Shown: in pieces, positions 1-63,868 of the stretch
Layout of the letters: each line of letters opens with the position of its first letter
Position numbering within the stretch: the stretch's first letter is position 1
Source: Lama guanicoe
Taxonomy: Eukaryota
Direction of reading: 5' to 3'
DNA length: 64,000 nucleotides
NCBI GenBank assembly: GCA_013239625.1
Contig: MU057352.1
Location: 30,077,277 to 30,141,276 of the forward strand
Translations under genes and position numbers: made by a program
The notes under the pieces: generated by a model
What the model was told of the DNA's origin: nothing
Databases searched by the model: none
What the model saw: the letters and a program-made list of their open reading frames with translations, nothing else

Positions 1-49
1 CTCCCTCCTATAAGAATAACCCAAACACATGTTGTTTTTCAAGATACAG

Positions 50-538
50 ACGGAACTCTAGCCGAGTCTGTCGTTCCGACCTTGCGCGCAGCTCTGATGG
101 CACCGCCTCCGCGCCTCCGCTCGCGCGCCCCGCCCCCTCCGGTAAGTGAGGCCGGGTTCGCGCGTTACTCGCCCCGCATCGCAGAGCCCGGGGCGGCGCC
201 AGCGCGGGGCGCCCACTGAGACGGACGGAAGGCTCAGAAGGAAGGAGGAAGGCCAGGCGGGAGGAGGGAAGGAAAAGCAAAGCGGGGAAGGAGTGGCAGC
301 AGCACAGCCCAAGCACCACAGCCAGTCTGAGTGCAGGAAGGCCGCTAGCGGCTGAGCAGCGGCGCTGCGGGGTGAGCGGCGGCGGCGCCCCGGGCTGGAC
401 GGGAGCCGCGCTCGGCGCGAGGCGGCGCAGCACGTCAAGGTCAGCGGCGCCCCCCGAGGCCCCGGGAGGAGCGGCCCCAGCGGGGAGGGGGTCTGCGAAG
501 CTCTCGGCTGCAGCACGGGGGAGTCTCGCGGGAGGCAA
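50..538. promoter_or_regulatory. Intronic CpG island with promoter-like motifs (origin unknown)
   Basis: Very CpG-dense with an abrupt drop to AT-rich sequence after ~540. GC box CCCCGCCCCC 128-137, TCAAGGTCA 435-443, plus-strand donor motifs at 142 and 372. Confidence 0.65.
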
Positions 539-844
539 GAAGGGGCATTTGGCATTTTGTGATGAATGACCACCATCTCAGTGAGCAAGAAGCTCTGAAC
601 GAGCACATTTTAAAACATTTTTTTAAAGAAATGACAAGACAGGGTCCTCAGATAATGGGGGAAGGGGAGTGTGCCAGTGAACCAAGGTGGAAACCACAAA
701 AACATGATTAAAAAAAATCCTACCGAAGACAAGAGGCAAGAAATGATTTCAGAAATGAATTTGGGGATCTGGGAATAAAAGTTACCTAGGAAAAACAGTA
801 ATGTTTCTTCAGGGTGGATGGTTCCTCATAAAATAAGTTTTTAC

Positions 845-898
845 CTGATCGCCTTTCTGCCCAGTCTCACCATCTGCACCACGCTCTCCTTTACTTCC
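845..898 (-). CDS. COL22A1: COL22A1 exon, 54 nt, GSKGERGADGETGQKGDQ
   Basis: ttttctcctaAG acceptor, GTAAAA donor. Confidence 0.94.
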
Positions 899-1409
899 CT
901 TAGGAGAAAAAAAGAAAGAAGGACCATTACTGAAAATCTGGCTAGAGCTTACCTTGCAAAAGAAAAATTTTGGCATTACATCCTTCCACTTATTCAATCA
1001 CTCATTCTTCACTAGTCTCTTGTCAAGACGGTGCTGCAGGCCAGGCAGGATGTCAGCAGATGAGAACAGTTAGGCCTGGTTGAGGGACTGTTGGTGCAAT
1101 GGCTTAATTGGGCTGTAGGGGGCAGGATGGGATCAGCAGAAAATGGGGCTGGGGATCCAGGCAGAGCCCACTTCACTGACAATCTTTTGTGTCAGCCCGA
1201 GAATCTGAATTTACTTGTAGGCTCTGGAAACCAGCAGAAGGATGTAGGACCACCCTAGGCTTCAGGAGGGTGCCTCAGGCTGCGGTGCAGGGTGGGCTAG
1301 AAGGTCCAGGATGAAGAGATGGGGTCAGTTAGGAGGAAACTGGGATGTTACAAGTGTGGGAAGGAAAGGAGCAGAGTCAACACGGTGTCTGTGGGCATCG
1401 CAGAGTAGA

Positions 1410-5677: not shown

Positions 5678-5955
5678 CCAGAACAGACTCAGACATAGAA
5701 AACAAACTATGGTTACCAAGGGGGAAAGTGGGGCGGGGGATAAATTAGGAGTTTGGGATTAACAGATACACACCACATATAACATAGATAAACAACAAGG
5801 ACCTACTGTACAGCACAGCGAAGTAGAGTTAATTTCTTGTAATAAGTTATAATGGAAAGGGATCTGAAAATATATGTATGTATATGTATAACTGAATCGC
5901 TTTGCTGTACACCTGAAACTAACATTGTAAATCAACTACACTTCCACAAGAAAAA
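5678..5955 (+). mobile_element. 5'-truncated cetartiodactyl-type L1 3' end with degenerate 17-bp TSD
   Basis: ggataaattaggagtttgggattaacagatacac...aacaacaaggacctactgtacagcacag...ctttgctgtacacctgaaactaacattgtaaatcaactac plus A tail. TSD aagaatgagtgtctgga (5661-5677) / aaggatgcgtgtttgga (5956-5972). Confidence 0.88.
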
Positions 5956-6730
5956 AAGGATGCGTGTTTGGAGCCCACACCCAGAGTTACAGCAAGCCAC
6001 CCCCTTACACATCTAGTCACTGATTTCCCACTGAGATTTCCCTGTCCCCTTCCCACCCCCAGCGTGTGTGAGCTAAGAGGGCAGACGAGTGGTGGCGACA
6101 GGAGCACGGCTATGTGTCCATGGGCATGACCCACCGCTACCGTGCTAGCTGGCGTGCTAGCCAGTCCCCAGGACGACCCCAGTGACCTCTGCCCCCACAG
6201 CCACACCCCTGAGTAGAACCCTCCCGTGTACCAGCGAGGCAACTCTGGGGTCTCCAAGATGATGCAATGGTAAAAACTGTTTCCTATTTTCTCCTTACCT
6301 TCTTCCCTTCTGCGCCTTCTCTAAAACTAACATTGTAAATCAACTACACTTCCACAAGAAAAAAAGGATGCGTGTTTGGAGCCCACACCCAGAGTTACAG
6401 CAAGCCACCCCCTTACACATCTAGTCACTGATTTCCCACTGAGATTTCCCTGTCCCCTTCCCACCCCCAGCGTGTGTGAGCTAAGAGGGCAGACGAGTGG
6501 TGGCGACAGGAGCACGGCTATGTGTCCATGGGCATGACCCACCGCTACCGTGCTAGCTGGCGTGCTAGCCAGTCCCCAGGACGACCCCAGTGACCTCTGC
6601 CCCCACAGCCACACCCCTGAGTAGAACCCTCCCGTGTACCAGCGAGGCAACTCTGGGGTCTCCAAGATGATGCAATGGTAAAAACTGTTTCCTATTTTCT
6701 CCTTACCTTCTTCCCTTCTGCGCCTTCTCT
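5916..6730. repeat. Tandem duplication: 407-bp copies 5916-6322 and 6324-6730 separated by one A
   Basis: Offset 408; identical 112-aa translations in the ORF track; both ends checked by eye. Confidence 0.95.
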
Positions 6731-53339: not shown

Positions 53340-53400
53340 GCGTGCGTGCACACACACGCACACGCGCACATACACACACACACACGCACACGCACACACA
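53340..53400. repeat. Imperfect (CA)n/(CG) microsatellite
   Basis: cacacacgcacacgcgcacatacacacacacacacgcacacgcacacaca. Confidence 0.9.
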
Positions 53401-54210
53401 GTCCAGCCCTCTCCTCTGTGCTCACTGCACTCTGAGCCCAGACGAAACCTGAGGTGTGGAGCTGAGACCTTACGACTCAATGAGACCCCGCAGCCCATCA
53501 GGAAAGGCCTGAGGGAAGCAGTGGTTCCTGGAGGGAACTGGGGCACCAAGTGATCCGAACCCAGCGCTTGGGGTCCGTCCCCACACCCACAGGAGGTGCC
53601 CTGTCCACGCAGCATGTGGGGTGGCCTCCGCTTCGCTTCCCCCTCGGATCTGCCTTCCACATGTCTACACCTGCTGGGAGCCCTGGAGGCTGAACAGAGG
53701 TCAGCCGGACTTCCCTGCTGTCTGCAGAGCCAGGTGCTAGGGAACACTGGAAGGAGAGCAAAGCTCGGGGGGACAGAAGAGAGAAGAGGGGGCCTTAACG
53801 CACACGCACACACAGTCCAGCCCTCTCCTCTGTGCTCACTGCACTCTGAGCCCAGACGAAACCTGAGGTGTGGAGCTGAGACCTTACGACTCAATGAGAC
53901 CCCGCAGCCCATCAGGAAAGGCCTGAGGGAAGCAGTGGTTCCTGGAGGGAACTGGGGCACCAAGTGATCCGAACCCAGCGCTTGGGGTCCGTCCCCACAC
54001 CCACAGGAGGTGCCCTGTCCACGCAGCATGTGGGGTGGCCTCCGCTTCGCTTCCCCCTCGGATCTGCCTTCCACATGTCTACACCTGCTGGGAGCCCTGG
54101 AGGCTGAACAGAGGTCAGCCGGACTTCCCTGCTGTCTGCAGAGCCAGGTGCTAGGGAACACTGGAAGGAGAGCAAAGCTCGGGGGGACAGAAGAGAGAAG
54201 AGGGGGCCTT
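53384..54210. repeat. Tandem duplication: 413-bp copies 53384-53796 and 53798-54210 separated by one A
   Basis: Offset 414; repeated identical peptide in ORF 53157..54269; both ends checked by eye. Confidence 0.95.
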
Positions 54211-63814: not shown

Positions 63815-63868
63815 CTGCGGCCCCAGCAGTCCAGGGGTTCCAGGAGGGCCCGTCTCACCTTTCTTCCC
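63815..63868 (-). CDS. COL22A1: COL22A1 exon, 54 nt, GKKGETGPPGTPGLLGPQ
   Basis: ccctcAG acceptor, GTAACC donor, six Gly-X-Y triplets. Confidence 0.93.

Follow-up and report, generated by a model that had tools for sequence, protein, structure and literature searches.

An orphan, promoter-like CpG island in an intron of the presumed COL22A1 gene of the guanaco

The guanaco collagen gene which we take, from its peptide sequences, to be COL22A1 carries in one of its introns an orphan intragenic CpG island, as judged by sequence criteria. Collagen XXII is found at muscle-tendon junctions. Orphan intragenic CpG islands are an ordinary, already known kind of element, of which this is one more case; in the literature on COL22A1, searched by gene name, we found no paper on such an intronic island. 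Positions are those of the window, that is the whole 64-kb stretch of DNA that was analysed, with negative numbers for bases before its start. The explanation that we favour, and that we hold to be right with slightly better than an even chance, is that of a single-copy island, older than the split from a relative that differs by ~4%, which probably escapes methylation in the germ line and probably serves as a weak promoter within the gene. The island and the nearest exon of its host gene are as follows:

51 to 540, no strand assigned: CpG island with 62 CpG and 73% GC, single copy in the assembly (CpG counts and own-genome searches)
845 to 898, minus strand: 54-bp Gly-X-Y collagen exon, upstream of the island in the host gene (exon scan)

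Counted on 50-540, the island holds 62 CpG in 491 bp, with an observed/expected ratio of 0.95 and a GC content of 73%, and thus exceeds the sequence thresholds that were applied (at least 200 bp, GC above 50% and CpG observed/expected above 0.6). The background was set by 83.5 kb of DNA, made of the 64-kb window and the 19.5 kb before its start, in which the other windows of 491 bp (821 windows) never had more than 36 CpG, their median being 14. The GC content of the whole window is 55% and its CpG ratio 0.42, which is a high background; the right flank of the island (541-844) has 39% GC and 2 CpG, and the left part of the intron 44% GC and 18 CpG in 756 bp. The final CpG of the island is at 529, the right edge being sharp and the left edge softer, and within the island the GC skew flips from -0.30 to +0.20 at the first of two donor-like sites (GT at 142). 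No direct or inverted repeat pair bounding the island was found, and a comparison with Rfam gave two weak matches only, far below the gathering scores and both outside the island.

The host intron is 1,552 bp long. It is bounded by the exon at 845-898, 305 bp from the island, and by another exon ~710-760 bases before the window start. Scanning the minus strand for Gly-X-Y exons gave 26 candidates, of which 24 were used as real (one lacking a standard donor and one duplicate were dropped). Eighteen candidates lie upstream of the island on the minus strand in the window, the farthest at 63,815, which places the island well inside the gene. The CpG counts and the exon scan therefore bear out the original prediction of a CpG-rich patch of ~490 bp that ends abruptly near 540, ~300 bp from a collagen exon, and support its description as an orphan, promoter-like CpG island, inside the gene and away from its main 5' end. 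The exon at 845-898 has an unusual AAG acceptor (899-901, minus strand), CAG or TAG being present in 23 of the 24 exons checked. Elsewhere in the window, positions 5913-6730 form a head-to-tail duplication of about 410 bp, 99.8% identical, which is either a tandem duplication of recent date or an artefact of overlap in the assembly, and positions 53384-54210 form one of 413 bp, 100% identical, which starts in a CA-rich repeat and is possibly an assembly artefact. Besides these two tandem duplications, self-comparison of the 83.5 kb showed one 58-bp pair and almost no dispersed repeats, so no young SINE family is evident there.

The island is found in independent sequence data. Of 24 listed sequencing runs, 14, which carry six organism labels between them, contain 92-100% of the words sampled; nine of these are flagged as possible sources, which leaves 5 runs from 4 studies. 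Contigs of the runs were compared over a region that begins 300 bases ahead of the window start and ends at position 800. In run X14 (DNA), one of these five, the whole region lies in one contig of 10,265 bp with 7 other letters. An assembly artefact is excluded by this contig together with the 14 runs that contain the sequence, and misassembly, which had been named as grounds for discarding the island, was in this way checked and ruled out. An unbroken contig from short reads, as in X14, also speaks against that genome having another copy nearly identical to the first.

Three further runs from three studies (X15, X17 and X18, on record or guessed as RNA) share a common set of variants that is ~4% different from the window: 13/273 and 16/444 in X15 (29 other letters in about 716), 4/115, 5/121 and 13/429 in X17, and 9/290 in X18. 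Their contigs are colinear across both edges of the island, those of X15 running from -50 to 641 in two pieces and those of X17 covering -300 to -186 as well, and the divergence is alike for flanks and island. The island was already present before the split from this relative. A divergence of ~4% is of the order of 5-20 million years at usual mammalian rates.

Within 50-540, 56 of the 62 CpGs are free of listed differences in the relative and 6 are touched. Of the listed transitions, 3 fall on the 126 CpG bases and 6 on the 365 remaining bases, counts with P=0.006 under a tenfold CpG mutation rate and P=0.067 under a fivefold one; six X15 differences are not listed by place, and in the worst case, all six being CpG transitions, P is 0.10 for the tenfold rate. 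The relative has three extra CpGs, at window positions 9, 30 and 42. The most simple reason for which CpGs are kept over such a time is that the island is unmethylated in the germ line, not that it is new, and judging indirectly from these counts it is probably unmethylated in the germ line where most mutations originate. Because CpGs are retained without excess decay in a relative in which the island is in line with both flanks, undecayed CpGs do not imply youth, and the proposal of a young insertion, which had been built on them, no longer holds.

Evidence for transcription comes from the same relative, and centres on one site:

595, minus strand: 5' end of one cDNA molecule in the relative, a candidate start site in the collagen sense (template-switch adapter, X18 contig 14)

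Contig 14 of X18 covers window positions 306-595 at a depth of 3.8 and continues past 595 with 39 foreign letters. The first 13 of these read, in reverse complement, as the 10x 5' template-switch oligo printed in PMC10636040, and the remaining 26 fit a 10-base molecule tag followed by a 16-base cell barcode. The tagged RNA began at 595 on the minus strand, which is the collagen sense, 55 bases outside the island; it represents one molecule bearing one barcode, where PMC10636040 sets its default threshold at 50 molecules. A second X18 contig with the same adapter maps inside a CpG-island promoter (L021), which fits a 5' library for X18. This promoter, at L021 1200-2100, is unrelated, has 84% GC and reaches a 5' contig depth of ~2,950 in X18. 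Strand invasion is unlikely at 595, because the adapter and the genome upstream disagree in 6 or more of 13 letters (a mismatch count, not an edit distance), and a stall of the reverse transcriptase is less likely because 595 lies outside the GC-rich part. Since the first G matches the genome, an unencoded cap G is not tellable. In the three studies, RNA contigs stop at ~595 (X18), ~602 (X17) and ~641 (X15), and positions 642-800 are covered by no RNA contig of these runs, a weak hint, as the runs were picked for containing the stretch and contigs as such do not show starts. The three runs comprise 489-936 million letters of contigs, equal to a quarter to nearly half of a genome, so that DNA carry-over or collagen pre-mRNA could explain the coverage. 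The tagged end points to initiation at the right edge of the island in the collagen sense.

A TATA-like TTTAAAAA lies ~30 bases upstream of 595; it is shifted by 3 bases in the relative and is for this reason not relied on. An AATAAA is found 370 bases before the window start, downstream on the minus strand. It sits in an A-rich stretch ~310-560 bases before the window (L001 about 940-1190), which to our eye looks like an ancient L1M element's 3' end lying in antisense. The island may also initiate antisense RNA. The original prediction had an antisense RNA running across COL22A1; the sole strand evidence is for the collagen sense, and the contigs, examined from -300 to 800, show no joints or loose ends at the plus-strand donors at 142 and 372. 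Contigs drop rare forms and cover this region only, so that unseen splicing at these donors does not show its absence.

The motifs of the island are:

83 to 90, no strand assigned: TGCGCGCA palindrome, NRF1-like; shuffle P=0.018, no listed difference in the ~4% relative
128 to 137, no strand assigned: GC box with its core at 130; not above chance, P=0.15
139 to 147, plus strand: donor-like site, GT at 142; score 10.3, changed at position +6 in the relative, no use seen in contigs
369 to 377, plus strand: donor-like site, GT at 372; score 7.0, no use seen in contigs
431 to 443, plus strand: CACGTCA (431) overlapping TCAAGGTCA (435), CRE half-site with ERR/NR5A-like site; exact 9-mer P=0.0007, post hoc, no listed difference in the relative

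All the motifs named in the original prediction were found where it had placed them, including, besides the above, TTCGCGCG at 157 and the flank motif AAGGGGCATTT at 540. The names ERR, NRF1, CRE and E2F are our own assignments. Chance was estimated from 3,000 block shuffles of the island: the exact TCAAGGTCA gave P=0.0007, the looser ERR core P=0.012, the NRF1-like site P=0.018 and the two donors P=0.028, while the GC box (P=0.15), the CRE half-site (P=0.28) and an E2F-like site (P=0.30) were at chance level. As the motifs were selected after the sequence was seen, the exact TCAAGGTCA alone is clearly beyond chance. Donor scores come from an approximate matrix, on which the real collagen donors score 2.8-12.0. 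The GCG run after the second donor (372-395) varies in length among the runs of the relative (+3 in X17, +12 in X15). On the minus strand, 215-290 holds a 60-base tract with 52 pyrimidines that ends in CAG at 217-216; by count it is as strong as the real collagen acceptors (17/22, against 13-22 for these) and no use was seen in contigs. By its sequence, it could serve as a cryptic acceptor or as the start of a terminal exon for the host pre-mRNA.

An open frame also crosses the island:

58 to 576, minus strand: open frame of 172 codons, judged to be chance

Frames of this length occurred in 19% of 5,000 shuffles (P=0.19), the relative has insertions of 1, 1, 2 and 1 bases that shift the frame, and none of 1,574 candidates scored as a homologue. 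The frame was rejected as a gene on these three counts.

The island had been proposed to be a retrocopy of another gene's 5' end, made by L1, with its right flank forming part of a target-site duplication. No second copy of the 540-550 flank was found in the 83.5 kb, so that the proposed duplication found no support, and the best match to 538-552 in the 780 bp leftward is 9/15; an old duplication could have decayed. No exact 10-mer is common to 520-700 and the 780 bp leftward, and what few matches there are, shorter or with mismatches, do not enclose the island; a match of 10/13 that pairs 601-613 with a site ~370-385 bases ahead of the window start, noticed by eye, was dropped as chance. As to a poly(A) or poly-T tail, only T7 at 618 and A8 at 710 were found, and the upstream poly-T tract that the proposal called for is lacking, as there is no T run of 6 or more left of the island. 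With target-site duplication and poly(A) tail both searched for and absent, the island is not classed as an L1 retrocopy. The search for a parent locus in the 2.05-Gb assembly by DNA, by six-frame protein and by seven patterns (1-3 mismatches) returned only the island itself, so the claim of a parent gene found no support in this assembly. The six-frame search gave, among 48 candidates, the island and one match at E=0.073 that did not extend; the seven patterns gave 9 off-target matches, none extending past a short GC-rich stretch. The modelled chance that all seven patterns miss an assembled parent is 0.0002 at 5% divergence, 0.022 at 10%, 0.21 at 15% and 0.56 at 20%, which excludes a parent less than about 10% diverged, if it is assembled. 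The assembly is in 55,231 contigs and a GC-rich promoter could be missing from it; the control promoter L021, with 84% GC, is present, and one control does not prove completeness. L021 itself was rejected as kin of the island, since the 37 letters that they share are no better than shuffles (44 of 150 reached the score). A 5' UTR or LTR of a transposable element should be met in many copies, and the DNA search and the seven patterns found one copy. If there is a parent, it may be old or lie in an assembly gap. Taken together, origin by insertion stays plausible, and the young L1-type insertion with its hallmarks is not supported, no duplication, tail or parent having been found.

Origin is the weakest step of the explanation that we prefer. 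Within it, we lean towards an old insertion of promoter-bearing DNA, whose source would have diverged beyond ~10-15% or be missing from the assembly. This is favoured by the step from 39% to 73% GC, by the skew switch at the first donor and by a promoter-, exon- and intron-like layout opposite the host strand. Because no insertion hallmark was found, a native island stays the main rival: the same promoter-like island would be ancestral in many mammals and lost in mouse, or would have grown in place. We consider this distinctly less probable than the preferred reading, and still a serious contender. It accords with the missing parent, tail and target duplication, with the soft left edge, where the relative has its three more CpGs, and with the finding of PMC4122923 that, out of 2,033 intronic islands which human has and mouse lacks, only 104 match another place in the genome; it fits less well with the sharp composition step at the right edge, with the layout on the strand opposite the host gene and with the lack of an island here in the mouse catalogue, and 490 bp at 73% GC would be hard to grow within an intron of 40% GC. 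The young retrocopy or 5'-inverted fragment of another gene's 5' end, driving antisense RNA, appears very improbable to us. It would explain why the plus strand, with its two good donors, looks like a gene's 5' end, and it is helped by the fact that run contigs resembling human DNA can be dropped and that an assembly of 55,231 contigs can miss a GC-rich promoter; its age is largely refuted by the presence of the island in the ~4% relative, and the lack of duplication and tail, the small modelled chance of missing the parent at 5% or 10% divergence, the unbroken X14 contig and the presence of the 84% GC control promoter all count against it.

It is also conceivable, and to our mind improbable, that the island is unmethylated or GC-protected and starts no transcript. 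The RNA signal would then stem from carried-over DNA or from collagen pre-mRNA, and the tagged end from a broken RNA on which priming took place in the A-rich stretch 340-370 bases ahead of the window start, which lies downstream on the same strand as internal priming requires. A single molecule, depths of 2.7-5.9 and very large RNA contig sets, with no silent control, leave room for this; the position of the tagged end 55 bases from the island edge, the RNA contigs of three studies that stop within 46 bases with the next 160 bases uncovered, and the initiation seen at many orphan islands (PMC2944787) argue for a start. We see only a slim chance that the island is lineage-specific, maternally methylated and imprint-like, its unmethylated paternal copy driving the internal transcript. 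By analogy with the RB1 retrocopy in primates, a captured promoter restricted to this lineage would have kept its CpGs for millions of years and would fire a shortened sense transcript, and its maternally methylated switch would extend KCNK9/PEG13 imprinting to COL22A1, an equally slim prospect. CpG retention would also fit methylation in oocytes only, and there are precedents in the intronic inserted islands of RB1, with allele-specific, maternal methylation (PMC4122923), and of H13/Mcts2 and Herc3/Nap1l5, of the imprinted kind (PMC8873577). COL22A1 has been tested with the KCNK9/PEG13/TRAPPC9 region, with the result that human COL22A1 is among the transcripts reported as biallelic (PMC3986935); moreover, among the 104 human islands with matches elsewhere, only 4 had both methylated and unmethylated copies (PMC4122923). 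Finally, a small protein-coding gene of 172 codons nested in the intron on the minus strand, or an assembly artefact, is hardly credible: the frame begins 19 bases after the tagged 5' end, and it is of chance length, frameshifted in the relative and devoid of a homologue among the candidates scored, while the artefact is contradicted by the X14 contig and the 14 runs that contain the sequence.

We take mouse Col22a1, a minus-strand gene, to lie at ~71.63-71.86 Mb. Over chr15 rows 231-260 of 985 in the mouse CAP-seq data (PMC2944787 Dataset S2), there is one island between 71,559,006 and 72,342,456, at 71,837,068-71,837,584, which is methylated in blood and which, by the gene coordinates assumed above, is near the 5' end of Col22a1; the guanaco intron is >63 kb and 18 candidate exons into the gene. 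Therefore, there is no unmethylated mouse island in these rows at this part of the locus. The gene name yielded no entry in the mouse island table or in five PMC4122923 supplement files. In PMC4122923, 2,033 of 2,174 human intronic islands are absent from mouse, and 77 of the 104 that match elsewhere were heavily methylated in monocytes; absence in mouse is thus the usual case and weak evidence.

With the orphan and intragenic islands of the literature (Illingworth et al. 2010, PMC2944787; PMC8873577), the guanaco island shares its intragenic position, promoter-type motifs, a hint of initiation and little CpG decay. The present one is known from sequence and contigs, and it differs in having no counterpart in the mouse catalogue. 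Like CpG85/PPP1R26P1 of RB1 (PMC4122923), it is a sharply bounded intronic island absent from mouse that could drive a sense alternative host transcript; it differs in that no parent gene, coding remnant, poly(A) tail or target duplication was found. Retrocopies that inherit the parental promoter are rare, about 3% of expressed ones (Carelli et al. 2016, PMC4772013), and have in common with it promoter-like DNA that may have moved through an RNA intermediate; here, in contrast, there is the promoter-like part only, in an unspliced donor-intron layout without body or parent. The islands of L1 or ERV 5' UTRs and LTRs are likewise CpG-rich intronic patches of several hundred bases, but the present island is single copy with no element body alongside.

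In the mechanism that we propose, an open and unmethylated state of the patch would be maintained by the GC-box, NRF1-like and ERR/CRE-like sites and by its high density of CpGs. Starting near 595, at the right edge, the polymerase would transcribe across the island in the collagen sense, yielding an unspliced, probably non-coding RNA, with some divergent (antisense) initiation, as is usual at such islands. Active intragenic islands can cause interference with, or early termination of, the host transcript (PMC8873577); an active island here could in the same way interfere with full-length collagen transcripts or end them early.

What the island means depends on which of these properties it has. 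As an ordinary orphan island, it would be one more among the more than 10,000 per mammalian genome, many of which show initiation (PMC2944787). It would count for more if it turned out to be active as well as confined to this lineage: it would then be a dated example of a structural gene that gained a promoter within its body, one able to yield a 5'-truncated or non-coding RNA and to interfere with the full-length message. If its methylation differs between alleles, an imprint new and limited to this lineage would lie next to a domain already known to be imprinted.
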